Assembly: GCA_964408855.1 (NCBI GenBank)
Contig: CAYPBB010000003.1
Coordinates: 45,892 to 109,891 of the forward strand
From: an uncultured Ectothiorhodospiraceae bacterium
GTDB taxonomy: Bacteria; Bacteroidota; Ignavibacteria; SZUA-365; GCA-2699105
Direction: 5' to 3'
DNA length: 64,000 nucleotides
This document shows positions 8,767-58,941 of the stretch, piece after piece. The position numbers and the translations under genes are program-made. The notes under the pieces are model-generated. The model saw only the letters and a program-made list of their open reading frames with translations, had not been told where the DNA came from and searched no databases. The first letter of the stretch is position 1, and the number at the start of each line of letters is the position of its first letter.

Positions 8767-9315
8767 ATGAAAAAACTCATCCTCACCGCGCTTCTCTTTG
8801 TTGTAGCAGCCACTATGAGCTACGCACAGTTGGGTACCGGCGTTGACGCAACGTTCACCGCCACGGCAACCGTGCTTTCAACCCTTTCCGTCACGAATAC
8901 CAACGACCTCGAATTCGATGACGTCATTCAAGGCGACAACAAAACCGTCGGTGCGAATACAACAACCGGTAACGTAACTACCACATACGGAACCGGCCAG
9001 CTCGCAGACTTTGCCATTACCGGCACCGGCAGCAAAGAAGTCGGCGCATACCTGACGACCACCAATTTCCTCAGCGATGGTACCAACACGTTGACGATGG
9101 AAGACTGGGTAGGCTATGCAAATGCAACCAACTCCCTCTCCGGCGCGACAACGCAGGCCGGTCCGACCTCTTGGGCAAACCATCTTACCGTCGTTCTGAG
9201 CGCAGGCGGCAACGGCTACATGTGGCTGGGCGCAACCGCGAAACCGACGAGCTCGCAGGCTCCGGGTTCCTACACGGTTGACAACACCTTCACATTCTAC
9301 TACACCGGCAACTAA
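8767..9315 (+). CDS. DUF4402/SCPU (spore-coat-protein-U)-like secreted pilin-type subunit
   Basis: The ORF is 8716..9315. The likely start is the ATG at 8767 (MKKLILTALLFVVAATMSYAQ, a signal peptide), with an aaagga RBS upstream. The mature part is about 160 aa, Thr/Gly/Asn-rich with predicted beta-strands, as is typical of archaic chaperone-usher (Csu/SCPU-type) subunits. A chaperone-like gene follows immediately. Confidence 0.55.
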   Translation: MKKLILTALLFVVAATMSYAQLGTGVDATFTATATVLSTLSVTNTNDLEFDDVIQGDNKTVGANTTTGNVTTTYGTGQLADFAITGTGSKEVGAYLTTTNFLSDGTNTLTMEDWVGYANATNSLSGATTQAGPTSWANHLTVVLSAGGNGYMWLGATAKPTSSQAPGSYTVDNTFTFYYTGN

Positions 9316-9398
9316 TTCTTGAGTATGGAACGGGGGCGGTTGTGCCGCCTCCGTTCTACCTTTTTTCGGCAGTTGAAAGGCACACAGGCAGTTCTGGT

Positions 9399-21900: not shown

Positions 21901-22327
21901 GGAAAGGTTCGATCTCTACAAGCGACTCTATAACGCGAGAAATGAAGACGACATCAGACTGATAGAAGAGGAAATATTCGACCGCTTCGGACTCTACCCA
22001 CAGGAAACGGAAAACCTTCTCTATGTTGTCCGGGAGCGGCTTGTCGCGGCGCGCATCAGGCTCGCGCGTGTCACATGGGATAGGAACAAACTCTCGCTCG
22101 TCCTGCCGCCCGAAGACGACGAGGAATTTTATTCCAGGCACTTCCAACCTATCGTTGCCTGGATCATGGAGAACAAATCGCGCATGCATCTCGAACAGGA
22201 TCAGCGTCAGGTACGCGTCATCGTTTCCGATGTCCGCGACTTGAAAGCGGTTGAAGAAATCCTCAATCACTTATACGGCATCGTGGCCAACACCGAGCCG
22301 GTGAACCACGTGGACGCGCAGCAATGA
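18983..22327 (+). CDS. mfd: transcription-repair coupling factor
   Basis: 1114 aa with a UvrB-homology N-terminus, the RNAP-interacting domain, an SF2 helicase core (Walker A GDVGYGKTEVAMRAAF, DEEH box LLIIDEEHRFGV, motif VI QLRGRVGRS) and the TRCF C-terminal domain. Confidence 0.9.
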   Translation: MPDKTQHDSSTAPDVRFLERLTGAAPIDGFLTTLPSTGAPVALHGVAGALKGLLPALLFRKTRRQIIVICNDTDSALDTWNDALLLLGEEQTVFIGDRYTHSQKTVRHIDNTFAENADLLRSLNENPTRLIVTDSESLLQEYPSSEAIRENSLQIERLTMMKQDDLLKRLAFGGFERNEFVTTNGEFAVRGGIIDVFPVGFDNPIRIEFFGDEVDSLREFDALSQRSIRQLDTISFVTSLFYGDDGAQATSSMIDYFTEDALVFVEEHEQLLRLANDKDRRDYIEVRLAMFPQYYLSVVASPGSSVMDIGAKRQPSLNGSIKLLHEYIRTQEEAGQLLFLVADSPQQVTRLAELLNDSYGEDDIAAPYKHPIVFCPLSSGFELPGGAFTVVTEHQLFNRQRIRKKVQKGQKGLSLRDLQQLHIGDYVVHVDKGIGKFAGFHSITVAGGVQETAKIIYADNDVLYVNLNYINRLQKYSSEEAHQPKLSKLGSGEWDRVRQKTKNRLKDIARDLIKLYAKRKMSQGFAFSADSAWQKEMEASFIYEDTPDQYKATVDVKQDMEDQMPMDRLVCGDVGYGKTEVAMRAAFKAVLDGKQVAVLVPTTILAEQHFHTFQDRMNKYSVRVEALSRFKTKGEQKETLEALASGKVDILIGTHRILSNDIRFRDLGLLIIDEEHRFGVAAKEKLRQLRSNIDTLTLTATPIPRTLNFSLLGARDLSTIETPPKNRLPIATSILAFNKEVIIEGAMRELNRGGQVYFVHDKVKDIEYVTDTLRTMLPSVRIGIAHGQMKAADLERMMLRFLERRLDILVATKIIESGLDIPNANTIFINNADKFGLAELYQLRGRVGRSNTQAYAYLLIPAEGKLTRDALKRLQAIEEFSELGTGFHLAMRDMEIRGAGNMLGAEQSGFIYEIGFDLYIATLEEAVQELKSEEFKELFGAEEALKEPLPRADVVMELGLDSYLPQDYVANSTERFDLYKRLYNARNEDDIRLIEEEIFDRFGLYPQETENLLYVVRERLVAARIRLARVTWDRNKLSLVLPPEDDEEFYSRHFQPIVAWIMENKSRMHLEQDQRQVRVIVSDVRDLKAVEEILNHLYGIVANTEPVNHVDAQQ

Positions 22328-31551: not shown

Positions 31552-32355
31552 TTAAAAAAGCATGTTTAGCCGTACGAGTAGTTGAAGCTCGGAGTGCTTC
31601 CAATCGCTGAGTCCGTTGTTCGTCGAGGACACCGGCTTGGCAAATCCGTCGGCGAGTCCGGTTAACGAAAGATGATACATCAGTTCGGGCTGAATTGTCA
31701 TCGTACGTGTGAGGGGTATTTCGTAACCGATACCGCCGCGCAGACCAAAACGAACCGATGTCATATCATACACATCGCCGATGCCCGAGTCGAGGACCTG
31801 CATTTCCGAGGTTCCAGTGGTTGCATAAATGAATCCCGGTGTTTTCATTTTTTCCTTCTCTTCGATGGTTCCGCCGACGAAGTACCCGATGGAAGGCCCG
31901 GCCATGATATACAGGCTTCCTGCGGCGATATTCCATTTACCGAGGATATCGACTGCAGCATACGAAAGTGTGATGTCTGCATTTTTCTCGAAGGTGATAT
32001 CTTCAATATCTCCATTCTGGACATATTCAGGGCGGGTCTCTTCGTCCTTGTATGATGCACTGGAGCCGTCGTACATCGCTTCGATGACAACGGAAAACTG
32101 CTCGTATAAGGGTAATTGGATAAACACACCTGCGGCGCCGTTGAATCCGCTGCCGTTTTCGTATGTGCAATTACATGTGGTGACAAGATTTCCAGAAGAA
32201 AACGAGAACGTACCGCCCAGAAAAGCGCCCCAGGATGCGCGCAGTTCAGCGGGCCGGAGAATATCCTCCGGCGGATCGGGTTGATTTGCGAATGAATTGG
32301 ATGTTGATACGGCAATGAATGCCGCCAGCAAGACAGAGGTTAAAATGTGGCGCAT
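31552..32355 (-). CDS. outer-membrane beta-barrel protein (OmpA-like/porin family)
   Basis: Signal peptide (LLAAFIAVSTSNSFA), alternating amphipathic beta-strands and a C-terminal aromatic residue (…LLVRLNMLF). Confidence 0.55.
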   Translation of the reverse strand: MRHILTSVLLAAFIAVSTSNSFANQPDPPEDILRPAELRASWGAFLGGTFSFSSGNLVTTCNCTYENGSGFNGAAGVFIQLPLYEQFSVVIEAMYDGSSASYKDEETRPEYVQNGDIEDITFEKNADITLSYAAVDILGKWNIAAGSLYIMAGPSIGYFVGGTIEEKEKMKTPGFIYATTGTSEMQVLDSGIGDVYDMTSVRFGLRGGIGYEIPLTRTMTIQPELMYHLSLTGLADGFAKPVSSTNNGLSDWKHSELQLLVRLNMLF

Positions 32356-32422: not shown

Positions 32423-33181
32423 CTATATCCTGACCAAATGCGCCTCTTCGATCCACCCTTCCTTGCCGTCGGCGAGACGGATGTGCATCTGTTCGCCTTT
32501 TTTCCCGATGATCTCTATTTTCAGTCCCTCATGTACCAGGAACGCATCTACACCGGAGCGGTCGGGCGCGCTGGATACTGGAGCTTCCATCGATAAAACT
32601 ATGGCATAACGGCCGGAACTCAAATCCTCGTTTTTATCCTGAACAAGAAAGACCGATGCCAGGAACAGCCCGGCGATGACTATACCCGCTGCCAATGAGG
32701 CTCTACGTATATACACGTTGTGCAAACCGAAGAAAACAAACACGCAGGCAGCCAAAAGCCAGAGCAGTGTAACACTATAGGCGAGCAATGCGGCAAGAGA
32801 GTGCTCCGTTTTCAGATCGTTCCACCATTGAACTGCAAAGAGCAGCGGAATTGCATCGACGCGGTCTCGGGTGCGAGCGCGCGCGACATTCAGATTCTGT
32901 ATGATATCGGGGTCCGAGGGCTCCAGTCTGTACGCCCGTTCGAACGAAAGAATGCTCTCTCCAAGCGCGCCCTGCTTGAAATACGCATTCCCAAGGTTAT
33001 AGTAAATCGTAGCGTCGTCGTAGCCTTCGTCGATCAGGCGATGGTAGAGTTCCACTGCTTCGGAATATCTCGCTTCGGAGTACGCGCGCCCCGCTTCCCG
33101 GAACAACTCCCCGGAAGATTGAGCATGCGCCGTTGTAAGAATAAACGCCAGAACAGCAATTGCGAACAGTTCCTTTTTCAT
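32423..33181 (-). CDS. batE: BatE-like TPR/SH3 domain protein (aerotolerance operon)
   Basis: The likely start is MKKELFAIAVLAF at 33181. It has TPR repeats (AVELYHRLIDEGYDDATIYYNLGNAYFKQGALGESILSFERAYRLEPSDPD), a TM segment and a C-terminal SH3-like domain. It is the last gene of the Bat operon. Confidence 0.65.
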   Translation of the reverse strand: MKKELFAIAVLAFILTTAHAQSSGELFREAGRAYSEARYSEAVELYHRLIDEGYDDATIYYNLGNAYFKQGALGESILSFERAYRLEPSDPDIIQNLNVARARTRDRVDAIPLLFAVQWWNDLKTEHSLAALLAYSVTLLWLLAACVFVFFGLHNVYIRRASLAAGIVIAGLFLASVFLVQDKNEDLSSGRYAIVLSMEAPVSSAPDRSGVDAFLVHEGLKIEIIGKKGEQMHIRLADGKEGWIEEAHLVRI

Positions 33182-33182
33182 G

Positions 33183-35036
33183 CTACACCCGTAACTCCTG
33201 TTCAATCGAGATAATCGCGGTTTTGGCCTTGTCGTAAAGATTGCTCATCTCCGAGGCGGTTGCCCGCGTCGGCGAGAAGCGCGCAAATTCGATACCTTCA
33301 AGAGCCGCCTGCGTATCGGCTATCGTCTGTTGTACCACCTGCCTCTGCTCAAGAATCGCGACCACGCCCGCGATCGATGTTTCCGATGTCGGGATGGAAA
33401 GTTTGTGCTGGATATATCCCCACAACGCCCGCGCTACCTCCTGATAGTAAAGATCGATCATATTCCGGTCGAGGTATTTGCGCGATGCGGAAAGATGCTT
33501 CTCGGCAGTGCGGCTTGCGCGGCGCATCTTGAGTCCGGCGATATCGCCGTGAATCCTGTCGTAGCGGCGCTTCCATGCAATTCCCAATGCGGCAAGCACC
33601 ATCGGCATGGCGTACAATCCAAGCATCGCCGGTACATCGAGCGCCGATTCGCCTCTGCGACGGAATTCATGCCCGCCTTCCTTCAGAGGTTTGATATCCA
33701 TCGCTAAATACTTGATACGCTCGGAATGCGGCTGATTTTCTTCGGTCGCGATATCGCCTTTTCCGATGTTGAGGGCAAATTCCTTCGATGTCAGTGTGAC
33801 GTACTGTTTCTTTTCGAGATCATAATAACTGAACTCCACCGGCGGTACGGTGACCTGTCCGGCGAAACGAGGAATCAGGATATATTCGAACGTCTTCGTT
33901 CCGGAAAGCGAACCGGATTCCGCTGCGAAATCGTCGACGATGTTCGGCGGATACGCGTCGACGCCGGAGGGAACGGTGATTTTCGGCTCGTTGAGCAGTT
34001 TCAGATTTCCCGATCCGGCGATTTTCACCTTCAGGGTTACGGTTTCGTTCGCCTTTGGCGAGTAATTGTCGATCGCGGCGTCCATGGAATACCGCCCGAC
34101 GGCGCCGGCAAACGATTCCGGCTTGCCTTTTTCGGGCAGCGGTTTCACTGTAATGCCCAGCTTATCCGTGGTAAGTGTGTACCGCACATTTTTGTACGAG
34201 TCAAAAAACGGATCGCTGAAAAACCGGTCCCGGATGCTGTTTCCGGTTTGCCGCTTGACGCGCACCTGCACGATGGAGCTGATTTCGAAAGGCTCTATAT
34301 TCAGGTTGCCCGATTGCGTCGGGAAATAGGCCATTTTGCGGACGATGAAAGTTTGATACTGCCGTCCGTTCAGCACTTCGATCTGAGGCTGCAACTGTTT
34401 CGGCGCTTCGAGCTCCTCCGACCAGAAACCAACGCTGCGTGGAATCTTGACGATGTTTTCGAGTTGGAATTCGAGCCGCGAATACAGTTTGTACGTCACA
34501 CGCACCGGCTCGCCGACGTATACTTCGCGCTTATCGGGAATGGATTTCAGCATGAACTCGGCGCCGACGTCTACTTTCTCGCCGCCTCCGGATGAGTTCC
34601 CTTTCTGCGTCTGCCCCTGCTTCTGCGATCCGGTCACGACGGTAATTTTGATCGGATTCGTTTTTAGCGTTTTCCCATCGTAGGAAATCGAGGCCGGCGA
34701 AATGGTGTATGTGCCTTTGTTGCGCGGCTGCAGAACGTATGTCCATCCGATGGAGGCGGATACCTTCCCGTTGATGATGGACATCTGCTGCGATGTGCTG
34801 GGTCCCATGAGCGTCAGGAAATCAGCGTTCAGGTTCGGCTGGCGGAAATCGGAGTAGGATTTCAGATTGCCGCCTGAAAGCGTAAATGTAACCTGGCATT
34901 GCTCGCCCTCGGCGACGGTCGTTGTATTTGCCGAGGCGGTAAACGTTACCTCCTGTGCAAGCGCCGCGTCTGGAACGGATGCCGCTCCGGAGATGAATGC
35001 GAAGACGATTGCCGCGAAAACGAATGTGCGTCTCAT
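33183..35036 (-). CDS. batD: BatD-like protein
   Basis: 617 aa with an N-terminal signal peptide, a large extracytoplasmic beta-rich domain and a C-terminal TM (LGLYAMPMVLAALGIAW) plus a cytoplasmic tail. Its position between batC and batE fits the Bat operon. Confidence 0.7.
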   Translation of the reverse strand: MRRTFVFAAIVFAFISGAASVPDAALAQEVTFTASANTTTVAEGEQCQVTFTLSGGNLKSYSDFRQPNLNADFLTLMGPSTSQQMSIINGKVSASIGWTYVLQPRNKGTYTISPASISYDGKTLKTNPIKITVVTGSQKQGQTQKGNSSGGGEKVDVGAEFMLKSIPDKREVYVGEPVRVTYKLYSRLEFQLENIVKIPRSVGFWSEELEAPKQLQPQIEVLNGRQYQTFIVRKMAYFPTQSGNLNIEPFEISSIVQVRVKRQTGNSIRDRFFSDPFFDSYKNVRYTLTTDKLGITVKPLPEKGKPESFAGAVGRYSMDAAIDNYSPKANETVTLKVKIAGSGNLKLLNEPKITVPSGVDAYPPNIVDDFAAESGSLSGTKTFEYILIPRFAGQVTVPPVEFSYYDLEKKQYVTLTSKEFALNIGKGDIATEENQPHSERIKYLAMDIKPLKEGGHEFRRRGESALDVPAMLGLYAMPMVLAALGIAWKRRYDRIHGDIAGLKMRRASRTAEKHLSASRKYLDRNMIDLYYQEVARALWGYIQHKLSIPTSETSIAGVVAILEQRQVVQQTIADTQAALEGIEFARFSPTRATASEMSNLYDKAKTAIISIEQELRV

Positions 35037-48579: not shown

Positions 48580-49409
48580 ACTCGACTACAATACTCGACG
48601 CGCTTTCGTCCATCCATCCCGAACCAGTCGATATCGTCGTAACCCTCGGTTCCGGATTATCGGAATTCACCGGAACACTTTCCGGCTCAACCTCGATTCG
48701 CATTTCCGATTTGCTTGGAACGACGGTTCGTGCAGTCGAGGGACATCGGGCGGCGGTTGTGTTTGGAAGCATCGGCACGAAGCGCGTTCTGACGTTCAGC
48801 GGTAGATTCCACATGTACGAAGGCCATTCATTCGACGTTTCGTCGCTTCCGGCGGCGGCAAGCAGCCGTTTCAATGCCTCTCTTATGATTGCAACAAATG
48901 CAGCCGGAGGCGTAAATCCGCTTTTATCTCCCGGCGATTTCATGCTTATTAACGATTATCTGTTACTCCCTGTTGCAGTGCAGGAGTTCGGTTCGGCAGA
49001 AAATCGGCATGAGAAGGAACAACGCGACCGCGCAACCGCCATTTCGGCAGATGCCATGCGCATGATCGGCGAAACGGCGAGGAGATTATCGATGACGCTC
49101 CATACGGGAACATATGCATACGTCTCCGGTCCCAGCTACGAAACGAAAGCGGAAATCGCGATGCTCCGCCGGTCCGGGGTCGATGCGGTGGGTATGTCCA
49201 CCGTTCCCGAATTGATAACGGCGACGCGGTTCGGAATTCCATGGCTCGGAATTTCATGCATCACCAATAAAGCGGCGGGAATGCATTCGCATATATCTCA
49301 TCACGACGTTCTCCATACCGCCTCGCTGAACGGATCGAAACTCGCTTCCCTGCTCCGGGAATTCATCATGGAGTATCACAACTCAGGCGCCGATCGTTGT
49401 TCAGAATAG
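48576..49409 (+). CDS. purine nucleoside phosphorylase (PNP-I/PunA type)
   Basis: 277 aa PNP/UDP phosphorylase fold (VVTLGSGLSEF...GRFHMYEGH...GMSTVPELITA...). Its start overlaps the nupC stop by 4 nt. Confidence 0.8.
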   Translation: MNSTTILDALSSIHPEPVDIVVTLGSGLSEFTGTLSGSTSIRISDLLGTTVRAVEGHRAAVVFGSIGTKRVLTFSGRFHMYEGHSFDVSSLPAAASSRFNASLMIATNAAGGVNPLLSPGDFMLINDYLLLPVAVQEFGSAENRHEKEQRDRATAISADAMRMIGETARRLSMTLHTGTYAYVSGPSYETKAEIAMLRRSGVDAVGMSTVPELITATRFGIPWLGISCITNKAAGMHSHISHHDVLHTASLNGSKLASLLREFIMEYHNSGADRCSE

Positions 49410-51718
49410 TCTTCACCATCGCAATGGTCCTCGCGCTCCTTCCGCGCGTATCGGCGCAGCAGGACACGACGGAATTGAATCTCTCCGGAATGGCCGCGTT
49501 CCGTCCCGGCGACGATCCCGTATGGCGCAGCAAGTACATCGACGAAGAAAACGGCTGGAATTTTGTTACCGTCCCCGGGGCGTGGGAAGACAACGGATAC
49601 CCGGTGCTCGACGGTTTCGGTTGGTACCGTATCAGGTTCAGGTTGCCGGATTCCATGCGCACCGATAGTCTGGTGCTCCTCATACGGGGCATCGACGACG
49701 CTGATGAGACATTTCTAAACGGTATAATGGTAGGGAAAAGCGGCGACTTCCCACCAAACCAGCGCTCGGAGTTGTACTCTCTACGCGCCTATCCTCTCCC
49801 CAAAGCGCTTCTGGAAGAGTACAATCTTCTTGCCATCCGCGTGTGCGATTTCGGCGAGAAAGGCGGCATCGCCGGGGATATGATCCGGATTGTTCCCGTG
49901 GATCGTGTCGCGGAGATCCTGAATCAGACCGTGGAAGAACCCTTCCGCGCGCCGCTGCTGTTTACCTCGAACGGCGTCAGTGTTTCTGCGTATAATCCCG
50001 TAACGGCGACAATCGAATGGATGAAGCCGCATTTGTTTTCCGAGTTGCAGGCGAATCTCACAACCGAAACCGTTCTCAGCTCGGTAACCCTTTCCGTCGC
50101 GCTCGATGGTTACGTTCACCGGCTGAAGGAATACGAAATCGATTTTACCGAATACTTCGAAAACACGAACATTATCCGGACCCGGTTCACGGAAGGATTC
50201 GAGGTTCTCTGGTATCATCCCGAAAAAACCAACCAGCAAGTGCTTGTCGGGATGCTGAAGCATCCGAAAGACGTAAACATCGAAGACGTCGGGCTGTTAT
50301 TTTCGGCGGACAAAAACTACTGGCAATACCGCGATTTCGTGCAGGATATCGGCGGCGAACGCCGGTACTACTTCGTCCTTGTATATCATTCCTGTTGCGA
50401 CGACCTGGCGCTCAGGGATCTGCGCGCCGTCGTGGGAGAAGCCGGCCGGGAATCGATCAACGATATTTCGCTCGAACGCCAATTGCTGGAATGGAAACAG
50501 ATCGTCAGCCGGATGTTCGTATTGCCGCCCCACCTCACGCCCGAGGAAAAAAACGTCTATATGCAATCGGTGGCATTGCTGCACATGGCGCAGGTACGCT
50601 CCGACGGAGCCGGAGACGGTCAGATCGTCTCCGCATTTTCTCCCGCATCGCGGGCATACACCGTGCCTCGCGAGCATCTTGTCTCCATTCAGGCGCTCGC
50701 CACCGCCGGATTACTTGAAGAAGCCGCGCGCGGATTTAAGTTTCTCGAGAACAGCGCCACCGGTAAGTTCATGTTCTTCGACGTCTACGGCGAAGAGTTC
50801 GGCGCCGGGTTGCCGTATTTTATCACCCCGTCGAAATATTACGGCTCCGGGATGGAATACACATGGAAAAAACCGGAAGAATCGGTGCTCAGTTATGACG
50901 GCATGGCGATATATATCGAAACAATTCAGAAGCTGCAGGACGCGAGCCGCAAATTATTCGAGCAGGAAGGAAGCCGGTTCAACGATAGTATCTTTGTTCA
51001 CACATACTGGAACCAACTTTCGCGCTTCACCGCGGATGTACTGATGCACGTGAGGGATTCCAGCGGTTTCATCAAGCGGGACGGCGGTCCCTTCGGCAGC
51101 GGACTCGATCTGAATGCGGGCATTTATTCGTCGATTCACGCATCGGCGGCGCTGCATATCGCTTCGGGGTATGCGGAGTTGATGCACGACGAAACACGGC
51201 ATACCGCATACGAGGAAGCGGCGCTCGATATTCGGCGCAGACTCGATAAAATCATAAAGAGCACAGCAGCAAGCATCGCCGAAAGTTCGTTGACAGTAAT
51301 CGAACGAAATCTGTTTCATCCCCTGTTGATCGATGGATTGACTATGCAGGTCTTCCCTCCACGCGGACAGGTAGCCCGCTTCGCGCTCGAAATGATGGAG
51401 AAGGGATTCAGCATTGAGAAAGCGAAAAGTATGTATAGCGCGCAACCCGACGGCGATTGGTTCGCCCGGCAGGCGCGTCCGCTGCTGACCATCAGGCTGG
51501 CACGCGCATATGCAGCCGATAAACAACTCCCCCGGGCAAACGAGCTGTTTAAAACCGTTACCGATATTGCCTCGGAACACTACGGGATGATTCCGGAATT
51601 CATCGCCGTGGATAGCGGCAACTGGTACGGCGGCGTTCCGGCAATCGGCTACGGCGCCGCGGAATACGTCCTCGCCGCATGGGAACTCTCCCGGCTCCGT
51701 CAGGAAAAGAATCCTTAG
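49397..51718 (+). CDS. secreted glycosidase-like protein (N-terminal galactose-binding-like domain + six-hairpin/(alpha/alpha)6-like C-terminal domain)
   Basis: Signal peptide (FTIAMVLALLPRVSAQQ). The N-terminal region resembles the GH2-N sugar-binding jelly roll (GFGWYRIRFRLP...LLIRGIDDADETFLNG). The C-terminal part is helical with glycosidase-like motifs (EHYGMIPEFIAVDSGNWYGGVPAIGYGAAEYVLAAWEL). Confidence 0.5.
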   Translation: MFRIVFTIAMVLALLPRVSAQQDTTELNLSGMAAFRPGDDPVWRSKYIDEENGWNFVTVPGAWEDNGYPVLDGFGWYRIRFRLPDSMRTDSLVLLIRGIDDADETFLNGIMVGKSGDFPPNQRSELYSLRAYPLPKALLEEYNLLAIRVCDFGEKGGIAGDMIRIVPVDRVAEILNQTVEEPFRAPLLFTSNGVSVSAYNPVTATIEWMKPHLFSELQANLTTETVLSSVTLSVALDGYVHRLKEYEIDFTEYFENTNIIRTRFTEGFEVLWYHPEKTNQQVLVGMLKHPKDVNIEDVGLLFSADKNYWQYRDFVQDIGGERRYYFVLVYHSCCDDLALRDLRAVVGEAGRESINDISLERQLLEWKQIVSRMFVLPPHLTPEEKNVYMQSVALLHMAQVRSDGAGDGQIVSAFSPASRAYTVPREHLVSIQALATAGLLEEAARGFKFLENSATGKFMFFDVYGEEFGAGLPYFITPSKYYGSGMEYTWKKPEESVLSYDGMAIYIETIQKLQDASRKLFEQEGSRFNDSIFVHTYWNQLSRFTADVLMHVRDSSGFIKRDGGPFGSGLDLNAGIYSSIHASAALHIASGYAELMHDETRHTAYEEAALDIRRRLDKIIKSTAASIAESSLTVIERNLFHPLLIDGLTMQVFPPRGQVARFALEMMEKGFSIEKAKSMYSAQPDGDWFARQARPLLTIRLARAYAADKQLPRANELFKTVTDIASEHYGMIPEFIAVDSGNWYGGVPAIGYGAAEYVLAAWELSRLRQEKNP

Positions 51719-51770: not shown

Positions 51771-51799
51771 TTGACTTCCGGCGCGCATTGCGTTATTTT
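51771..51799 (+). promoter_or_regulatory. sigma-70-like promoter upstream of T9SS cargo array
   Basis: TTGACT-N17-TATTTT, about 65 nt upstream of the ATG at 51862. A short GC hairpin (acgccc-ttt-gggcgt) lies in the leader. Confidence 0.3.
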
Positions 51800-51861: not shown

Positions 51862-53436
51862 ATGTCCCGCGCTTCCGTTACTGGAATTGTTGCGCTGTGT
51901 TTATTCTGCGCACCCTATCTTGTTGCCCAACAGCAACCCGTCGCCATAACCGTGGTCTGTGGATCGAAGGCCGCAACACCGCAAGCACATACTCATATCG
52001 CTGGAGAGCCGATAACCGTTCATCTCACCGCCCGCGACGGGAACGGCGATGTGATCCGCGATTGGGATCAAACAGGATCGGCTGCTACAATCACGCTTTA
52101 CAATTCGGATGCGAACACCGACACCAGTACCAGAAGCTGGAACGAAGATCCGGATGGCTACACCTGGGCCATGTTCTTCTATAACGGTCAACCGTTGCCC
52201 CACTCCTCGCCATACGGATGGACTCTCCCTCCGTCAGTCTTTACAGATGGAACAACCGAGTTGGAATTTGTGCATACAAAGACCGGCACAGGGATATCTT
52301 ATGAAATTACTCCTCCTCAATCGCCGCTCAGTCAGAAATCCGATGAGATGACCTTCGTACCTGCACAGACGTCTAGTTTCCTCGTCCAGTTGACGAACGC
52401 AGTGCCGGGTAAGACCGCCGTATTTCACATGCGCAAATATGAGATAACCGTCGTGCCTCGCGATAGGTATATGAATGTCACCGACGAGGTGATCCTGACG
52501 AAATTCAGCGCGCGGTTTCCCGGCGAGTTCCTGAATTCGCAGCCCGGGTACTCGGGATTGTTCGGCGGAGCGGTGTATTTGCAGGGCGCGACGAATTACT
52601 TCCTTGCTTCCACCACAAAGCGCGAACTTGGCGCCGACCAACTTCAATGGATCATGGCATACTCCGAAGCCGATCCGGATATCAACGGGAAAAGCCCCGA
52701 ATATGAAGTGCTTACCCATGCACCATTGTCTTTTCGGTTATTCAACCCGCCTGATAAATCATGGCTCCTTCTCCAAAGTCACACAACTCCGCAAGTATTT
52801 GATTGGGAACGAAGCGACGATGCTTACTCAGGGATCACAGTATCGAATACTACCGGCGAAATCGCATCCGATGTTGTTCGCTATACAATCCATTTCGTGG
52901 ATAGTCTCAGCCTGACACGGGAAGTAACAATTGATTCCGACGATCTTGGTTCAAAGTATAAATGGACGACAACCCATGGACAGCTTGCCGGTATCGTGCA
53001 GACGCAGGGAGGGGACCCGTTTGAACATAACATGATCTGGTTTGTCGAGGCGACGGACGGTTTTTACATAACAAGAAATGTCGATCCGAACCCATCGGTA
53101 CCTCAAATCGGATTTAGATTAAAGATATCGCCTGCGATTCCTCATCTTGTGGAATCGCTAAGAGGAGCAGCTTCCTCCTTCCTCCTCCACCAGAATTACC
53201 CGAACCCCTTCAACCCATCGACGACGATTCGGTTTGAGATTATCGAGCGCGGGCATGTAACTCTGCGCGTGTACAATCTGCTGGGAAACCAGGTGGCGGA
53301 ACTAGCGAACGAGACACTCGATCCGGGTGTGTACAGCGCGGAATTCAATGCTTCGGGATTGGCGTCGGGGGTGTATACGTACACGCTGCACATCGGGGAC
53401 AGGTTATTAAGCAAGCAAATGATTATTGAGAAGTAA
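51862..53436 (+). CDS. T9SS C-terminal-domain cargo protein, paralog family (long form)
   Basis: Signal peptide (VALCLFCAPYLVAQ). N-domain (LTARDGNGDVIRDWDQTG...NTDTSTRSWNEDPDGYTWA), middle domain (RKYEITVVPRDRYMNV...WTTTHG...WFVEATDG) and a type-A T9SS C-terminal domain (HQNYPNPFNPSTTIRFEIIERGHVTLRVYNLLGNQVAEL...GVYTYTL). Confidence 0.8.
   Translation: MSRASVTGIVALCLFCAPYLVAQQQPVAITVVCGSKAATPQAHTHIAGEPITVHLTARDGNGDVIRDWDQTGSAATITLYNSDANTDTSTRSWNEDPDGYTWAMFFYNGQPLPHSSPYGWTLPPSVFTDGTTELEFVHTKTGTGISYEITPPQSPLSQKSDEMTFVPAQTSSFLVQLTNAVPGKTAVFHMRKYEITVVPRDRYMNVTDEVILTKFSARFPGEFLNSQPGYSGLFGGAVYLQGATNYFLASTTKRELGADQLQWIMAYSEADPDINGKSPEYEVLTHAPLSFRLFNPPDKSWLLLQSHTTPQVFDWERSDDAYSGITVSNTTGEIASDVVRYTIHFVDSLSLTREVTIDSDDLGSKYKWTTTHGQLAGIVQTQGGDPFEHNMIWFVEATDGFYITRNVDPNPSVPQIGFRLKISPAIPHLVESLRGAASSFLLHQNYPNPFNPSTTIRFEIIERGHVTLRVYNLLGNQVAELANETLDPGVYSAEFNASGLASGVYTYTLHIGDRLLSKQMIIEK
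53174..53436 (+). repeat. CTD-encoding near-identical DNA repeat, copy 1
   Basis: tcctccttcctcctccaccagaattacccgaaccccttcaacccatcgacgacgattcggtttgag... This segment is shared by the four consecutive genes at >85-90% nucleotide identity by eye. Confidence 0.6.
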
Positions 53437-53437
53437 T

Positions 53438-54625
53438 ATGCGAATTGCAACACTTCTATTCGCGGTTCTCTCAATACTCAGCGTTTCGTCATGTATTGGC
53501 AGAGAGTGTTATTCTTTCTCCGATATAGAATATTTCGCATCTCCTCCTGATTCGCTGGATGAACTGCAAATCGAAATCACTTCCGTCGATTCAATGCGGC
53601 TTGCGGTGTTTCATCAGCGAATATATGAGATTGTTGTTACGCCATACGACAGGTATATGAATATTATCGACGAGCCGGTTGAGGTAACACTCTCTGCACG
53701 TTTTCAGAATGAATTCAGATTCGACGAACCTGGGTGCACGGATATTTTTTCATTGCCGCAAACGCTTCATGGAGAAACAGCATTTTATGTTATATCGACG
53801 GTCGATCGACAGCTCGGAGAAAACGAGCCACAATTGCTTACTGTAAACTCCGTATTAAAGCCACATGTCATGGGTTTCTCGAATTATTACGAAGTAAGAA
53901 GACATCCGCCGTCAAGCTTTATGCTTCTGAATCCGGCCAACAATACATTATTACTTTTACAATCCGCTACCACATCACAATCGTTTGAATGGCAACCCAG
54001 CATCGATCCGGTGCGATACAGTAAAATCTCGAGATATTCGAATGCGTTCCTGTTCGATTCGATCAGATACACAATCTCATTTACCGATAGCGCATCGCTC
54101 GCGCATACTGTGCGCATGCCTTCGGATCAACGAGGCATATCGCCGAAGTTTTCAACCACGCACGGCGAACTTTCGGACATCCTCGATCATATATTCGGGC
54201 GAACCTGGCTTACCGCCACTACCATTTGGTTTATCGAGGCAACCGATGGTATAACCACCACCAGCAACACTGTTTCGGACACAATCCAACAATACCCCGG
54301 ATTCTTCCTGCGATTCATACTTGGTGCTACCCCGCACGTGGAGCAATTGACGAGTCGAGTATCCTCCTTCCTCCTCCACCAGAATTACCCAAACCCCTTC
54401 AACCCATCGACGACGATTCGGTTTGAGATTATCGAGCGCGGGCATGTGACTCTGCGCGTGTACGATCTGCTCGGAAATCAGGTAGCAGAACTAGCGAACG
54501 AGACACTCGATCCGGGTGTGTATAGTACGGAGTTCAATGCTTCAGGATTAGCATCGGGGGTGTACACATATATACTGCAAACTGGGACATCAACTCTCAC
54601 CAAACGCATGATTGTGGAGAAGTAA
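53438..54625 (+). CDS. T9SS C-terminal-domain cargo protein, paralog family (short form)
   Basis: The ATG lies 2 nt after the previous stop. Signal peptide (MRIATLLFAVLSILSVSSC). It is homologous to the middle domain of the long forms (YEIVVTPYDRYMNI...SARFQNEFRFDEPGCT...WFIEATDG) and has a near-identical T9SS C-terminal domain. Confidence 0.8.
   Translation: MRIATLLFAVLSILSVSSCIGRECYSFSDIEYFASPPDSLDELQIEITSVDSMRLAVFHQRIYEIVVTPYDRYMNIIDEPVEVTLSARFQNEFRFDEPGCTDIFSLPQTLHGETAFYVISTVDRQLGENEPQLLTVNSVLKPHVMGFSNYYEVRRHPPSSFMLLNPANNTLLLLQSATTSQSFEWQPSIDPVRYSKISRYSNAFLFDSIRYTISFTDSASLAHTVRMPSDQRGISPKFSTTHGELSDILDHIFGRTWLTATTIWFIEATDGITTTSNTVSDTIQQYPGFFLRFILGATPHVEQLTSRVSSFLLHQNYPNPFNPSTTIRFEIIERGHVTLRVYDLLGNQVAELANETLDPGVYSTEFNASGLASGVYTYILQTGTSTLTKRMIVEK
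54363..54625 (+). repeat. CTD-encoding near-identical DNA repeat, copy 2
   Basis: Same ~260-bp segment as copy 1. Long identical runs include ccatcgacgacgattcggtttgagattatcgagcgcgggcatgt and gaactagcgaacgagacactcgatccgggtgtgta. Confidence 0.6.
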
Positions 54626-54626
54626 G

Positions 54627-56147
54627 ATGAATACATTTATACATATCGCCTGCATAGCAATGCTGATTCCGTGCATGGCGTTAGCGCAAGTGTCGCAATA
54701 CACCGCCGGAGACAGCGTTTCCATTGTACTTACCGCGAAGGACGGTTCGGGCAATATCATCACCGACTGGGATCAGACCGGTACAAACGCTATCCTCACG
54801 CTGCACAATTCCACCGCAAATACCGATACCAGCAATCGAAGCTGGAACGCTGATCCTATTGGCTATTCCTGGGCCATGGTGTATCATGATGGGCAGCCGT
54901 TGACGCAGATTTCCGATTACCAGTGGAATATGCCGCCTGCATTGTTTACGGATGGGACAGCAGAACTGACATTCGTTCACACAAAATCCACCGAAGAAGC
55001 AGCTTTTACGATGTCGATTGACGATACCAGCGCTTCATTCAAGATAGCACCAAACAGCATTAATTTTGTCGCCGGCCCTATAACGAATTTTCTTGTGCAT
55101 CTCGTTTCGTCGATTCCTGACAGCGAGGCGGTGTACAATTTTCGTAAATATGAAATCTTTGTCTGTCCGCGAGATAGATATCTGAATGTAACGAATGAGC
55201 AGATCCGGACGAGGTTTACAGCTCGTATTCCCGGCGAGTTTGCAAATTCGTTGCCGAGTTTTTCCGATGTATTTAGCGGAGACGTATTTATTCGAGGTAG
55301 TACGAATTTTTTCCTCGCATCAACAAAAGAACGCATTAAAGGCGTGGATACTCTCCAGTGGCTCAGCGTAACCGCTGGCGATGACTCAACAGTCACAGGT
55401 CGAACCTCAGAATATGAAATACGCCCGCATGCACCATCTGACTTTAATCTTCTTCTCCCAGTCGATGGAACAATCCTCACGTACAATACATGGACGACCC
55501 CGTACGAGTTTTCATGGGAGGAGGCGCCCGATCCATATACGAATATTCTAATTTCGATAGTATGCGCCGAGCTAGGAAACGACGTCGTCGACTATACCAT
55601 CCATATCTTGGATAGCGCCAGTCTCACGAAACGTACAATAAGACCGTCTGACAATAATAAGCGGTTGAATAAGTGGACAACCACCCATGGTGAGCTCCGG
55701 AGTATCGTGGAATCGCAGCCAGACACTGTTTCCTACCATGCGATGATCTGGTACGTCGAAGCTACCGACGGTCTATATGTTACCCAGAGCAATGATCCTC
55801 ATCCCGGTATCCCGCAAATCGGGAATCGGCTATCAGTATATATTCCCAACCCTGATAATGTTGAGCGAATTGCCCAGGCAGCGACCTCCTTCCTCCTCCA
55901 CCAGAACTACCCGAACCCCTTCAATCCATCGACGACGATTCGGTTTGAGATCGTCGAGCGCGGGCATGTGACCTTACGTGTGTACGATCTTCTCGGCAAT
56001 CAGGTGGCTGAACTAGCGAACGAGACACTCGATCCGGGCGCGTATAGCACGGAATTCAATGCCGTGGGATTGGCGTCGGGGGTGTACACATATATACTGC
56101 AAACTAGGATATCAACTCTCACCAAACGCATGATTGTGGAGAAATAA
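54627..56147 (+). CDS. T9SS C-terminal-domain cargo protein, paralog family (long form)
   Basis: The ATG lies 2 nt after the previous stop. Signal peptide (IACIAMLIPCMALAQ). It has the same N-domain (LTAKDGSGNIITDWDQTG...NTDTSNRSWNADPIGYSWA), middle domain and T9SS C-terminal domain. Confidence 0.8.
   Translation: MNTFIHIACIAMLIPCMALAQVSQYTAGDSVSIVLTAKDGSGNIITDWDQTGTNAILTLHNSTANTDTSNRSWNADPIGYSWAMVYHDGQPLTQISDYQWNMPPALFTDGTAELTFVHTKSTEEAAFTMSIDDTSASFKIAPNSINFVAGPITNFLVHLVSSIPDSEAVYNFRKYEIFVCPRDRYLNVTNEQIRTRFTARIPGEFANSLPSFSDVFSGDVFIRGSTNFFLASTKERIKGVDTLQWLSVTAGDDSTVTGRTSEYEIRPHAPSDFNLLLPVDGTILTYNTWTTPYEFSWEEAPDPYTNILISIVCAELGNDVVDYTIHILDSASLTKRTIRPSDNNKRLNKWTTTHGELRSIVESQPDTVSYHAMIWYVEATDGLYVTQSNDPHPGIPQIGNRLSVYIPNPDNVERIAQAATSFLLHQNYPNPFNPSTTIRFEIVERGHVTLRVYDLLGNQVAELANETLDPGAYSTEFNAVGLASGVYTYILQTRISTLTKRMIVEK
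55886..56147 (+). repeat. CTD-encoding near-identical DNA repeat, copy 3
   Basis: Same segment as copies 1 and 2 (tccttcctcctccaccagaactacccgaaccccttcaatccatcgacgacgattcggtttgagatcgtcgagcgcgggcatgtgac...). Confidence 0.6.
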
Positions 56148-56148
56148 T

Positions 56149-57354
56149 ATGAAAAAGATCGTAGCACCTTTTATGGCGTTTATTATGATACTTGGATATG
56201 CACATGTACAGTCGGGTATTTCGCAAGGTATTTTACACTCAACCGATCCTGTAATTGCGTCTGAACATACGCCTTACTCCGATACACTGGACTATATATC
56301 TTTCGAAGTTCGATCTGTGGATTCGACAAGTCTTGCTGTGTATGCCCAGCGGAAGTTCGAGATGATCGTTACGCCGCGTGACAAATATTGGAATATCATT
56401 ACGCGACCGGTACATGTCACATTTTCCGCACGTTTCCCCGATGAATTCAGATTTGATGAGCCGCGATGCACGAATATCTTTCAGGGCGTACAAACTCTAA
56501 ACGGTGAGACGGCATTCTATCTTGTTCCAACGAAAGACCGCCAACTGGGAGAAGCAGTGCAGCAGCTAATGTGGGTAACATCGGTCGACCAGCCGGAATT
56601 AGTAACGTATTCCGATTATATCGAAGTGCGCCGCCATGCACCGAAGCCGTTTAAGCTGCTGACGCCTACAGATGGAGTATTGATAGTCCTGCAATCGTAT
56701 AGTACACCGACAATATTTACATGGGAAGAGTCGCATGATCCTGTCGAGTACATAAAAACATCCAGGTACACCAATGATTTCCACTATGATTCGGTTAGAT
56801 ATACGGTATCTTTTCTTGATAGCGCAACATTGACTCACAAAGTAAGTATGTTGTCTGATGCGTTGGGCAGAAAACCAAAGTTGTCTTCTTCACATGGATC
56901 GGTTCATACAGCAATGGGAGAGATCTCTGCCTGCAACAATCCGTGGTGTTCATCCTTCTGGTTTGTCGAGGCGACCGACGGTCTATATATTACTCACAGC
57001 AATGCACCTTATCCCGGTATCCCGCAAATCGGGAATCGGCTTTCGACGTATTACCCATACGTAAACGTTGAAAAACTTGCTCTATCATCCTCCTCCTTCC
57101 TCCTCCACCAGAACTACCCGAACCCCTTCAACCCATCGACGACGATACGGTTCGAGATTGTCGAGCGAGGGCATGTAACTCTGCGCGTGTACAATCTGCT
57201 GGGAAACCAGGTGGCGGAACTAGCGAACGAGACACTCGATCCGGGTGTGTACAGCGCGGAATTCAATGCTTCGGGATTGGCGTCGGGGGTGTATACATAT
57301 ATACTGCAAACTGGATATGCTATCCAATCTAAGCAAATGATTTATAACAAATAG
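56149..57354 (+). CDS. T9SS C-terminal-domain cargo protein, paralog family (short form)
   Basis: Signal peptide (MKKIVAPFMAFIMILGYAHVQS). It is homologous to the second gene of the array (FEMIVTPRDKYWNI...SARFPDEFRFDEPRCT...WFVEATDG) and has the T9SS C-terminal domain. Confidence 0.8.
   Translation: MKKIVAPFMAFIMILGYAHVQSGISQGILHSTDPVIASEHTPYSDTLDYISFEVRSVDSTSLAVYAQRKFEMIVTPRDKYWNIITRPVHVTFSARFPDEFRFDEPRCTNIFQGVQTLNGETAFYLVPTKDRQLGEAVQQLMWVTSVDQPELVTYSDYIEVRRHAPKPFKLLTPTDGVLIVLQSYSTPTIFTWEESHDPVEYIKTSRYTNDFHYDSVRYTVSFLDSATLTHKVSMLSDALGRKPKLSSSHGSVHTAMGEISACNNPWCSSFWFVEATDGLYITHSNAPYPGIPQIGNRLSTYYPYVNVEKLALSSSSFLLHQNYPNPFNPSTTIRFEIVERGHVTLRVYNLLGNQVAELANETLDPGVYSAEFNASGLASGVYTYILQTGYAIQSKQMIYNK
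57089..57354 (+). repeat. CTD-encoding near-identical DNA repeat, copy 4
   Basis: Same segment as copies 1-3 (tcctcctccttcctcctccaccagaactacccgaaccccttcaacccatcgacgacgatacggttcgagattgtcgagcgagggcatgtaactctgcgcgtgtacaatctgctgggaaaccaggtggcggaactagcgaacgagacactcgatcc...). Confidence 0.6.
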
Positions 57355-57362
57355 CCTAATCA

Positions 57363-58883
57363 ATGAAAACGTATTCATCTGTAATCATACTACTACTCAT
57401 CATTCTTGTCGCTCTAACGCAGGCACAACAACGGACCGTTCTTCACGCCGGCGACAGATACGCATTCGAACTCGTCGCTAAAACATCGACGGGCGATACG
57501 ATCAAGGACTGGAACGCAGTGGGTTATCCCGTACGGCTTTTCACCTTGCCATACGATGCCAATATCGATACCAGCATGCGAAGCTGGAGCGCCGATGCCG
57601 ACGCATATACCTGGGCGCGGGTTTACCACAACTCGCAGCCTATTGATATATGGGGAGTTACTAATTGGACTATCGAGCCTTCAAAGTTTGAAAACAGTGT
57701 ATGCCGTCTCGAGTTTGCCTGCTCGAAAGCCCTTTCCAATCTCGTTATCCATATTGCCGATACCAGTGCAAGAGTCAACTGCATCGCAGACACGCTCACC
57801 TTCCTTCCCGGTCCGGTGTCCCAACTGTCGCTGGAATTAACAAGTCATGTACCGGGAAGCAATGCTGTGTATGTAGAACGACCGTGCGAACTCATCCTCA
57901 CTCCCATGGACCGGTATTCGAATGAAACAAGCGATAGCATCAGTGTGCAATTTAGCGCCGCCATTCCCGATATATTCTCCGGTCAAACCCGGTATCACAA
58001 TTTTAATAGCGGTTATCCAGTCGTGATCGATAAGCGCACCGCATTGTATACATCGTTTCTCGCCGTCCACGAAGCTGCGTCGAACGATACATTGCAAAAG
58101 ATCACGGCAACCGGCATCGCGAATCCCGGTATTTCCGCGACCACAGGCGATTTCGAAATCCTGAGCCACCCGCCCACCGCATTCCGCCTGTTGACGCCCG
58201 TTAACCACGAACGCATTAGGTTGATCTCCTATTCAACACCGTTCTGGTTTACATGGGAAGAATCATCCGATCCTGTCCGCAATATTGCCGTAGGTCGATA
58301 TACCGGTGAACAATGCACCGATGCGGTAAAATACAAGGTCGTGTTTCTCGACAGCGCTACGTTGACAAAAACCGTAAAATTGGATTCCGATGAATTCGGC
58401 ATCTTGCCGCGTCTAAGTTTGACCCATGGAACGCTCAATGGAATAACGGAACAAATAACCGGCGGCATAGCCCTGTACACAAATCTGTTTTGGTATGTTC
58501 TTGCTACCGACGGTATTTTCCCGGTAACAAACTCACTTGATTCGCAGTACACATATCGTGGCAGATACCTCATGGTAGACAAGGCTTATATTCCCATTCA
58601 TCCCACTCCGCCACCTCCCAAATCAATCCTTTTGGAAACATGCTACCCCAATCCTGTGTATGGTACATCGGCTTACCAATTCGAACTGCCTGAAGACGGA
58701 AATGTCACGATAAAAGTGTACGATAGCCACGGCGCTTGCGTACGTACGCTTGCAAATGACTATCTGCTAAAAGGATATTATCAATACGAATTGTTTTCGA
58801 GGGAATTAGGAGCCGGTGCATACATCATGGTGCTTCGTCTCAACGGCAATACAGTGCAACGCCGATTCATTGTCGCGAGATAA
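57363..58883 (+). CDS. T9SS C-terminal-domain cargo protein, paralog family (long form, divergent CTD)
   Basis: Signal peptide (VIILLLIILVALTQAQ). It has a homologous N-domain (…DTSMRSWSADADAYTWA) and middle domain (ILTPMDRYSN...THG...WYVLATDG), but a divergent C-terminal beta-sandwich sorting domain (…CYPNPVYGTSAYQFELPEDGNVTIKVYDSHGACVRTLAN...). Confidence 0.75.
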   Translation: MKTYSSVIILLLIILVALTQAQQRTVLHAGDRYAFELVAKTSTGDTIKDWNAVGYPVRLFTLPYDANIDTSMRSWSADADAYTWARVYHNSQPIDIWGVTNWTIEPSKFENSVCRLEFACSKALSNLVIHIADTSARVNCIADTLTFLPGPVSQLSLELTSHVPGSNAVYVERPCELILTPMDRYSNETSDSISVQFSAAIPDIFSGQTRYHNFNSGYPVVIDKRTALYTSFLAVHEAASNDTLQKITATGIANPGISATTGDFEILSHPPTAFRLLTPVNHERIRLISYSTPFWFTWEESSDPVRNIAVGRYTGEQCTDAVKYKVVFLDSATLTKTVKLDSDEFGILPRLSLTHGTLNGITEQITGGIALYTNLFWYVLATDGIFPVTNSLDSQYTYRGRYLMVDKAYIPIHPTPPPPKSILLETCYPNPVYGTSAYQFELPEDGNVTIKVYDSHGACVRTLANDYLLKGYYQYELFSRELGAGAYIMVLRLNGNTVQRRFIVAR

Positions 58884-58941
58884 TCTTGTACAACAATAAA
58901 GCACAGCAATTGCTGTGCCTTTTGCGTTACAACAAGTAATT

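Follow-up and report, generated by a model that had tools for sequence, protein, structure and literature searches.

Five tandem genes in an uncultured Bacteroidota-like bacterium probably constitute one operon of paralogous, non-enzymatic T9SS cargo proteins, in which strings of Ig-like domains with a likely coat or adhesive role are followed by type A T9SS C-terminal domains (CTDs) kept alike by gene conversion. The homogenisation of the CTDs, absent from the preliminary description of this DNA, is the most informative feature of the array. The window referred to throughout is the whole stretch of 64,000 nucleotides that was analysed, and coordinates are positions within it.

Organisation of the array

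The array consists of five co-directional ORFs on the + strand (G1-G5), in the order long-short-long-short-long, with intergenic spacers of 1, 1, 1 and 8 nt:

51862..53436, + strand: G1, 524 aa, long form; putative signal peptide, N (~51982-52335), M1 (~52360-52794), M2 (~52798-53130) and type A CTD (~53197-53433)
53438..54625, + strand: G2, short form, 395 aa counted from the ATG; putative signal peptide, M1, M2 and CTD, without N
54627..56147, + strand: G3, 506 aa, long form with N, M1, M2 and CTD behind a putative signal peptide
56149..57354, + strand: G4, 401 aa, short form with M1, M2 and CTD behind a putative signal peptide; sister of G2
57363..58883, + strand: G5, 506 aa, long form; furthest removed of the paralogues, and divergent in its CTD as well

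The tandem arrangement initially proposed, with genes 1-8 nt apart, agrees with these ORF coordinates and lengths, and all five reading frames are intact. The exact products of G1-G5 are found as predicted proteins on one NCBI contig, the genome is represented in the runs SRR12489243/4/8, and the junction between the upstream GH15-like gene, G1 and G2 is backed by two independent assemblies, L042 (100% identity) and the strain variant L008 (98.1%). The paralogy of the five proteins, which had also been put forward, is far beyond chance, with full-length identities of 33-53% and per-module HMM scores of 142-214 bits. Pairwise identity and the per-module HMMs likewise bear out the modular construction, in which long forms comprise N, M1, M2 and CTD, and short forms M1, M2 and CTD. 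The motifs quoted in the preliminary description are real, and are conserved in the wider family too.

Besides the short spacers, two flanking features are typical of an operon, namely a gap of 143 nt before G1 and a terminator-like hairpin after G5:

51771..51799, + strand: weakly supported promoter-like site within this gap, TTGACT-17-TATTTT
58898..58921, no strand assigned: terminator-like hairpin, bidirectional, separating G5 from the convergent SDR gene

Promoter-like sites in the region are no more numerous than in shuffled sequence. The hairpin is a probable end of the transcription unit, and on these sequence features G1-G5 probably form one operon.

The neighbours of the array are PNP, a GH15-like gene for a secreted enzyme, which lies immediately upstream, and the SDR gene. 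In L043 and L044 a conserved TK-(NupC)-PNP-GH15-like block is present with no family gene after it, and synteny with L043 breaks off where the array lies. Other genomes have family genes beside different neighbours, for instance genes for IgGFc_binding T9SS proteins. Given the block without a family gene and the varied neighbours elsewhere, insertion at a synteny breakpoint seems to account for the adjacency to the GH15-like gene. No RNA genes, tRNAs or mobile elements were found near the array.

Export signals

All five proteins match the TIGR04183 model (type A T9SS sorting domain) at 30.6-42.4 bits against a cut-off of 23, in accordance with the earlier assignment of a T9SS C-terminal domain to each. 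For PF18962, G1-G4 exceed the cut-off and G5, at 24.9 against 27, lies below it. The C-termini read IIEK, IVEK, IVEK, IYNK and IVAR. Signal peptides were assigned by eye alone: the N-termini of G1-G5 have a basic start and a hydrophobic core, followed in G1, G3, G4 and G5 by A/V|Q, a pattern consistent with the Bacteroidetes Q-rule (PMC5837995). The signal peptide of G2 contains a lipobox-like VSSC, and the other four have no lipobox-like Cys. A PorU2/PorU-like C25 protein is encoded at 3367-8151 of the same window (E 1.7e-92 and 5e-53, under NCBIfam curated cut-offs).

Domain composition and distribution of the family

AlphaFold models of the array proteins (pLDDT 88-90) contain only beta-sandwich domains, arranged N-M1-M2-CTD, with N missing from the short forms; no enzyme fold was found, and the mutual orientation of M1 and M2 is confidently predicted (pTM 0.79). 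Because the models consist of Ig-like beta-sandwiches only, a non-enzymatic surface or adhesin role is a sensible reading; such generic folds reveal no ligand, lattice or adhesion property. Between 14 and 22 residues are invariant across the whole family, and D[ST][AILVMT] sequons are in modest excess in the array.

Scanned against Pfam and NCBIfam, the five proteins matched nothing but the CTD. PDB sequence searches, one with G1 and one with a family profile, found nothing meaningful: the profile did not reach SusE or SusF sequences, and three nsp3 matches (E 0.4) were rejected as chance. The initial impression of an unrecognised domain family stands for N and M1, for which no Pfam, NCBIfam or PDB sequence family was matched, but not for M2, which hhalign aligns with the SusE-like Ig domain PF14292 (probability 97.1%, E 6.5e-11). 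In related T9SS proteins, Pfam assigns SusE at the position homologous to M2. A direct PF14292 search of G1-G5 gave no match at E<=1, and a double-unit relative scored 21.8 bits against a gathering score of 25.2. Judged from the profile comparisons, M2 and the SusE-like Ig domain are remotely related. Among N, M1 and M2 themselves hhalign found no relation (all probabilities <1%), and thus no trace of an internal duplication.

About 100 protein clusters contain the N-M1-M2 cassette, their source being uncultured Bacteroidota/Ignavibacteria-like MAGs; counted by genome locus, there are 33 from approximately 18 MAGs. The cassette occurs as a single unit, as a double unit, in the short form and at the C-terminal end of proteins of ~3000 aa, and it invariably directly precedes the CTD. 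At least 10 MAGs have, in addition to a giant locus, a separate locus with a single or double unit, and complete short forms with signal peptides are known from other lineages (P0098, P0112 and P0130). No close relatives of G3 were found in JGI metagenomes, and a profile scan gave only 9 distant additional loci.

Gene conversion between the C-terminal domains

Between the gene bodies, identity is 39-60% in DNA and 31-58% in amino acids. The CTDs of G1-G4 are 81-90% identical in nucleotides and 82-93% in amino acids, with the same codon used at 70-88% of identical residues; the CTD of G5 has 33-38% amino acid identity to the other four. The repeated sequence is as follows:

53174..53442, + strand: 269-nt homogenised tract, copy 1; G1 CTD, stop codon and G2 start
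54363..54631, + strand: 269-nt tract, copy 2; G2 CTD through G3 start
55885..56153, + strand: 269-nt tract, copy 3; G3 CTD through G4 start
57092..57360, + strand: 269-nt tract, copy 4; G4 CTD
55747..55834, + strand: 88-nt tract closing M2 of G3, with 88% identity to positions 56957-57044 of G4

The CTDs of G1-G4 have been homogenised by gene conversion, and the gene bodies are old. The 88-nt tract is a second likely site of conversion, involving one long and one short gene. Tracts like the 269-nt repeat are also found in L007 and L025.

Comparison with L008 indicates how this process operates between strains. Nearly half of the differences between the window and this variant (30 of 66) lie in copy 1 of the 269-nt tract. 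In the L008 G1 CTD, 17 of the 30 variant bases equal the G3 paralogue, including 8 of 9 consecutive variant sites, and in another patch all five variant bases equal G4. This patchwork exchange between paralogous CTDs implies that conversion is ongoing. For a second divergent tract of L008 (G2, 53605-53809) there is no outstanding donor in the window, with G4 matching at 12/27, G1 at 10/27 and G3 at 11/27 positions. Against the same variant, pN/pS is 0.10 for G1 and 0.15 for G2; the array genes are under purifying selection.

The gene tree pairs G2 with G4 in 98% of bootstraps and groups this pair with the long gene 2 of L007 in 76%. The idea that the long-short order arose by duplication of an A-B pair, which fits this relationship of the short genes, was rejected as it stands: G3 is sister to G1 in only 7% of bootstraps, so that the idea is only half supported.

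Composition and age

The array is AT-richer than the rest of the window, which agrees with the earlier by-eye impression relative to the flanking genes. Its GC content is 0.46-0.515 against a mean of 0.535 for the rest of the window (~5 points lower), and its GC3 is 0.48-0.56 against a mean of 0.62 in the 34 other ORFs (~10 points lower; Mann-Whitney p about 1e-3 to 1e-4). The recent acquisition at which the low GC had seemed to hint is contradicted by comparison with relatives. In L007 the array lies at the identical site between flanks that are only ~65% identical at the DNA level, hence the lower GC is not a sign of recent acquisition; furthermore, family genes in other genomes have a GC3 equal to that of their neighbours. 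By these sequence comparisons the array is old. Its lower GC3, in this genome only, is left unaccounted for by the main explanation, and partial replacement through recombination with a lower-GC relative may have occurred.

Comparison with known systems

Tannerella forsythia has KLIKK peptidases, a set of proteases that span several catalytic classes and end in -KLIKK (PMC4404884). As in the KLIKK arrays, G1-G4 are clustered T9SS cargo genes with nearly identical CTDs; unlike them, G1-G5 have no peptidase domain or fold and no KLIKK end, and their bodies are paralogous to each other. The SusE/SusF-like Ig domain is placed before the CTD in other T9SS cargo, as M2 is here, but the array differs from the SusE family in lacking a PUL context, SusC/SusD and starch-binding modules, and in having a lipobox-like Cys in G2 only. 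For the Big domains of intimin/invasin and the MG domains of macroglobulin, G1-G5 gave no Pfam match (Big_1, Big_2 or MG); they also lack a thioester motif and any autotransporter or LysM context.

The TfsA/TfsB S-layer glycoproteins, also of T. forsythia, are described in two reports as T9SS cargo forming a surface layer (PMC8869499, PMC4604654). The likeness to the array would lie in T9SS cargo status and the modest sequon excess, the lattice being a feature of the Tfs proteins; a surface layer or secreted toolkit, as first suggested, is conjecture for the array proteins. TfsA and TfsB are encoded by adjacent genes, are rich in Ig-like domains and O-glycosylated, and are much larger than the array proteins. 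Recombination and gene conversion are discussed as a source of diversity between strains in surface virulence factors of Porphyromonas gingivalis, a T9SS-bearing Bacteroidota species, with domain rearrangement and allelic exchange (PMC5266723). There, as in the array, gene conversion acts on genes of actual or probable surface proteins; the clearest effect here, however, is the homogenisation of an export tag among tandem paralogues, not diversification between strains.

Function and alternative explanations

By analogy with established type A CTD proteins, the products of the array would be exported through Sec and cleaved by signal peptidase, mostly leaving an N-terminal Gln. The T9SS translocon would then recognise the CTD, a PorU-type sortase would remove it, and the protein would be attached to the cell surface or released. 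Outside the cell, the Ig-like cassette would most likely be a coat or adhesive module. The array probably originated through old duplications, with the two short genes a lineage-specific pair that lost the N domain, and ectopic gene conversion holds the CTDs of G1-G4 nearly identical as the exposed domains diverge. The proteins are thus most likely surface-attached or secreted adhesive or coat proteins, for which we infer secretion and anchoring as well as role.

The proteins might be glycan-binding accessories with a SusE/SusF-like role, capturing polysaccharide at the cell surface for the secreted enzyme encoded upstream. This is unlikely, because the Pfam and NCBIfam scans found no CBM in G1-G5, SusC/SusD genes are absent beside the array, the GH15-like block of L043 and L044 has no family gene, and the neighbours of the family differ in other genomes. 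PF14292 itself covers the N-terminal Ig-like domain of SusE, not the starch-binding modules. A role for N-M1-M2 as a stalk or co-assembly module instead of an adhesin, through which the small paralogues and a ~3000-aa cassette protein would form a heteromeric surface layer or fibre base, would suit the fixed position of the cassette before the CTD even at the end of giant proteins, the presence of giant and separate smaller loci in the same MAGs and the confidently predicted M1-M2 orientation. Co-occurrence, however, would be expected of paralogues of one clade anyway, and this role is improbable. Similarly doubtful is the fuller proposal of a dedicated, undescribed pre-CTD assembly module of an uncultured Bacteroidota-related clade, by which small, short, double and ~3000-aa forms co-assemble and conversion keeps their tags matched for like export and anchoring.

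The deficit in GC and GC3, together with the synteny breakpoint relative to L043, would be explained if the array were a recently acquired foreign island. The shared position in L007 between such diverged flanks indicates that the insertion is old, no flanking tRNA, integrase or other mobile-element signature was found, and members of the family come only from the same group of MAGs, which together make a foreign island a poor candidate. It is very unlikely that the short forms, or the entire array, are decaying functionless duplicates: although the short forms have lost a domain, GC3 falls below what is normal for the genome and the paralogues differ greatly, every frame is intact with putative signal peptide and CTD, residues are invariant family-wide, pN/pS between strains is low, and complete short forms recur in other lineages. 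An operon of adhesive or coat proteins with converted CTDs is hence the preferred reading.

Implications

In environmental Bacteroidota-like bacteria, much of the 'dark' secretome consists of T9SS cargo without recognisable domains. One such family is now defined, by a three-domain cassette with two domains lacking a sequence family and one that is remotely SusE-like, and its range of architectures is documented from 400-aa to 3000-aa proteins. For annotation, the cassette is a candidate for new domain models. Though still without a name, the family belongs to an ordinary class of secreted surface proteins, and understanding of T9SS itself is unchanged by the array. What the array does provide is a clean case of concerted evolution limited to an export tag, with strain-level conversion patches, which bears on how tandem cargo genes maintain compatible secretion signals.

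Organisation and composition of the array

Five intact, co-directional paralogous genes alternate between long and short forms, as the preliminary description had it, and are bordered by candidate transcription signals:

within the 143-nt gap 5' of G1: weak promoter-like site
51862-53436, + strand: G1, long form, 524 aa
53438-54625, + strand: G2, short form, 395 aa
54627-56147, + strand: G3, long form, 506 aa
56149-57354, + strand: G4, short form, 401 aa
57363-58883, + strand: G5, long form, 506 aa
58898-58921: terminator-like hairpin 3' of G5

The encoded proteins share 33-53% full-length pairwise identity, and the spacers from each stop codon to the next ATG measure 1, 1, 1 and 8 nt, agreeing with the gaps of 1-8 nt first described. 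A T9SS C-terminal domain (CTD) had been proposed for each protein; it is of type A, and TIGR04183 does match all five above its cut-off of 23 (30.6-42.4 bits); PF18962 is above cut-off in G1-G4, with G5 just below. The exact products exist as predicted proteins on record, all from one 145,225-bp NCBI contig, and antisense ORFs in 51862-58883 are short shadows only (100-170 aa). Two independent assemblies, L042 (100% identity) and the close strain variant L008 (98.1%), span the junction of G1 and G2 with the upstream GH15-like gene. This is a real and well-defined tandem array of an as yet unnamed T9SS cargo family. It is also AT-richer than its surroundings, as had been judged by eye: the GC content of the genes is 0.46-0.515 against a mean of 0.535, and their GC3 is 0.48-0.56, compared with 0.62 ± 0.06 for the other ORFs (34 in number; p of roughly 1e-3 to 1e-4).

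Directly upstream, 49397-51718 (+) encodes a 773-aa secreted protein whose sole Pfam match is a weak one to the GH2_N sugar-binding domain. Its roughly 40 closer relatives are all 'hypothetical', and distant relatives (26-27% identity) bear PF00723 (GH15). Elsewhere in the window are a hybrid sensor kinase with a PocR domain (652-3237), mfd (18983-22327) and, on the - strand between 30000 and 40000, a BatD-containing cluster resembling the Bacteroides aerotolerance (Bat) operon:

31552-32355, - strand: OMP beta-barrel
32423-33205, - strand: TPR protein
33183-35036, - strand: BatD

Domain architecture

The AlphaFold2 model of G1, computed from an input alignment of 42 sequences, is confident (mean pLDDT 87.9) and contains four beta-sandwich domains:

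G1 residues about 43-150: N
G1 residues about 163-284: M1
G1 residues about 293-424: M2, with one inserted helix
G1 residues 440-522: CTD

Only the long forms carry the extra N-terminal module, so their earlier reading as a short form with a module added holds. M1 and M2 are predicted to be a fixed pair, because the model of these two domains in the short form G2 reaches a pLDDT of 90.1 and a pTM of 0.79.

Outside the CTD, no sequence match for G1-G5 was found in Pfam, NCBIfam or PDB chains. The family profile picks up M2 and the CTD in other T9SS cargo, in which Pfam calls PF14292 at the M2-equivalent position (E 1e-7 to 1e-11). An M2-only alignment matches those PF14292-bearing segments with an hhalign probability of 97.1% (E 6.5e-11), and a double-unit relative matches PF14292 directly, below threshold. 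By these profile comparisons, M2 is remotely related to the SusE-like Ig domain PF14292, though it falls outside Pfam's own definition of the SusE family. No relatives of N or M1 were detectable outside the family, nor could hhalign detect any mutual relationship between N, M1 and M2. The domain family had been called unrecognised; this stands for N and M1 but no longer wholly for M2.

Distribution of the family

When 5.8 billion proteins were searched through a word index, 47 relatives emerged, all annotated hypothetical. A profile search run exhaustively over 1.84 billion cluster representatives gave approximately 100 that span the N-M1-M2 cassette, the other matches being CTD-only. Among GTDB species genomes, 33 family loci were located in about 18 MAGs, labelled by NCBI as Bacteroidota, Ignavibacteria, Chlorobiota and, in some cases, Chromatiales or Ectothiorhodospiraceae. 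The last two ('uncultured Chromatiales bacterium' or 'Ectothiorhodospiraceae bacterium' at L009, L010, L012, L018, L024, L032, L034, L038; L006) are probably mislabelling, because the gene content comprises T9SS CTDs and synteny with Bacteroidota/Ignavibacteria MAGs.

Module HMMs reveal that N-M1-M2 acts as a cassette, invariably directly before the CTD. Four architectures occur:

single unit, about 520 aa
double unit, about 930 aa
C-terminal end of ~3000-aa proteins otherwise lacking Pfam domains
short M1-M2-CTD proteins

The giant proteins (L009, 2318-11467; similar in L011, L016, L018-L024, L031, L036, L046 and L048) have only the C-terminal cassette and CTD as recognisable parts, their first ~2500 residues being without a Pfam match. 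In at least 10 MAGs, a giant locus is accompanied by a separate locus with a single or double unit. Complete short forms with signal peptides are found in other lineages (P0098, P0112 and P0130). Arrays in related genomes, a point raised at the outset, do occur: L025 has one of 548-955-929-928 aa, a double unit comes after a single unit at several loci, and no fewer than three long genes lie at the syntenic L007. Among retrievable loci, the five-gene alternating array is confined to the window genome and its close strain variant.

History of the array

The window and L007 have in common an upstream block of beta-lactamase, AlbA_2, TK, NupC, PNP and GH15-like (757 aa in L007) genes, after which the array stands at the same place, despite flanks that are only ~65% identical at the DNA level. 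No family gene follows this block in L043 or L044; the TK-(NupC)-PNP-GH15-like part is conserved in all three loci. Hence the array is an old insertion at a synteny breakpoint. GC content had been named as bearing on recent acquisition, but a recent foreign island is quite improbable given the array at the same site in L007 between such diverged flanks. Low GC3 in family genes is peculiar to the window genome, those of L007, L003 and L005 matching their neighbours; the array may have been partly replaced through recombination with a relative of lower GC. It probably lies beside the GH15-like gene only by chance.

Three further genomes each have one lone family gene, oriented divergently from a cluster with an IgGFc_binding T9SS gene. 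This conserved cluster (L001, L003 and L005, about 3400-9650 in each) encodes the IgGFc_binding T9SS protein (1055-1263 aa), a ~270-aa outer-membrane beta-barrel-like protein, a PD40/OmpA protein and GidB, which may together form a cargo/PorP-like/PorE-like set.

A bootstrapped NJ tree of M1-M2 places G2 and G4 as sisters (98%) and groups this pair with the long L007 gene 2 (76%); G1 pairs with L007 gene 1 (60%), and the placement of G3 and G5 is without support. By this topology, the short forms arose when N was lost and the shortened gene was then duplicated.

Concerted evolution of the CTD

At the DNA level, identity between the gene bodies is 39-60%, and 29-62% of their identical residues use the same codon. 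Between the CTDs of G1-G4 the corresponding figures are 81-90% and 70-88%, whereas the CTD of G5 is divergent. Homogenisation covers a 269-nt direct repeat found in four copies, reaching past the stop codon and into the start codon that follows. G3 and G4 also share an 88-nt patch at 88% identity. Similar tracts are seen in L007 (224 nt at 85% identity) and L025 (300 nt at 96%).

Fifty-eight of the 66 differences between L008 and the window are concentrated in two short tracts, the rest of the comparison (~2450 nt) having only 6. One is the G1 CTD, with 30 differences in 269 nt, 17 of them giving the base of the G3 paralogue; eight of nine consecutive variant sites at 53262-53289 match G3, and all five at 53196-53250 match G4. 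This clustering of paralogue-matching bases shows that CTD gene conversion is ongoing. The other is the core of G2 M1 (53605-53809; 27 differences in about 205 nt, about 13%), flanked by nearly identical DNA. Since no donor was found for it among the window paralogues, it may represent allelic exchange with an unsampled strain. Gene conversion is largely restricted to the export tag.

Proposed export and function

That G1-G5 are T9SS cargo is very likely. From established T9SS biology, the proteins would be exported by Sec and their signal peptides cleaved, after which they would be translocated by the T9SS, lose the CTD to PorU and end up either surface-attached or released. Signal-peptide cleavage in four of them probably falls before Gln, matching the Q-rule (PMC5837995). 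The G2 signal peptide (53438-53500) ends in a lipobox-like LSVSSC, and the short-form relative P0112 has TISC; G4 lacks such a Cys. A lipoprotein also bearing a T9SS CTD would be unusual. At 3367-8151 (+) lies a 1594-aa Peptidase_C25 protein with ILEI, CARDB and FlgD_ig (CTD-like) domains, matching NCBIfam 'putative T9SS sortase PorU2' (E 1.7e-92) and PorU (E 5e-53), both below curated cut-offs; this PorU-like protein is probably the sortase for the array CTDs. D[ST][AILVMT], the Bacteroidetes O-glycosylation sequon, occurs 20 times in G1-G5 (0.86 per 100 aa against 0.37 in other ORFs). The DS[ALIVT] site in M2 (G1 residues 347-349, about 52900-52908) is kept in all five window proteins and in five of the six relatives of alignment A3, L007 gene 2 having DHE.

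As only Ig-like domains are present, an adhesive or structural role seems most likely, and the full statement, that G1-G5 are putative non-enzymatic surface, adhesive or coat proteins, is on balance favoured. SusE-like glycan capture serving the neighbouring GH15-like enzyme is unlikely. It is also unlikely that the cassette is a stalk or co-assembly module partnering the giant protein. Decay of duplicated genes is highly improbable: pN/pS between the window and L008 is 0.10 for G1 and 0.15 for G2, implying purifying selection on both.

As an arrangement, the array has its nearest precedent in the KLIKK peptidases of Tannerella forsythia, with differing bodies and nearly identical CTDs (PMC4404884); G1-G4 likewise have similar CTDs and divergent bodies, but none of the array's products is a protease or ends in KLIKK. 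Surface-protein recombination in P. gingivalis (PMC5266723) is a phenomenon related to the conversion seen here, while the TfsA/TfsB S-layer proteins and intimin/invasin-type adhesins offer no more than a functional analogy. What is most interesting in this family is the modular cassette, together with gene conversion that leaves most of each gene body aside; the finding is of use for annotation and of modest interest to specialists.
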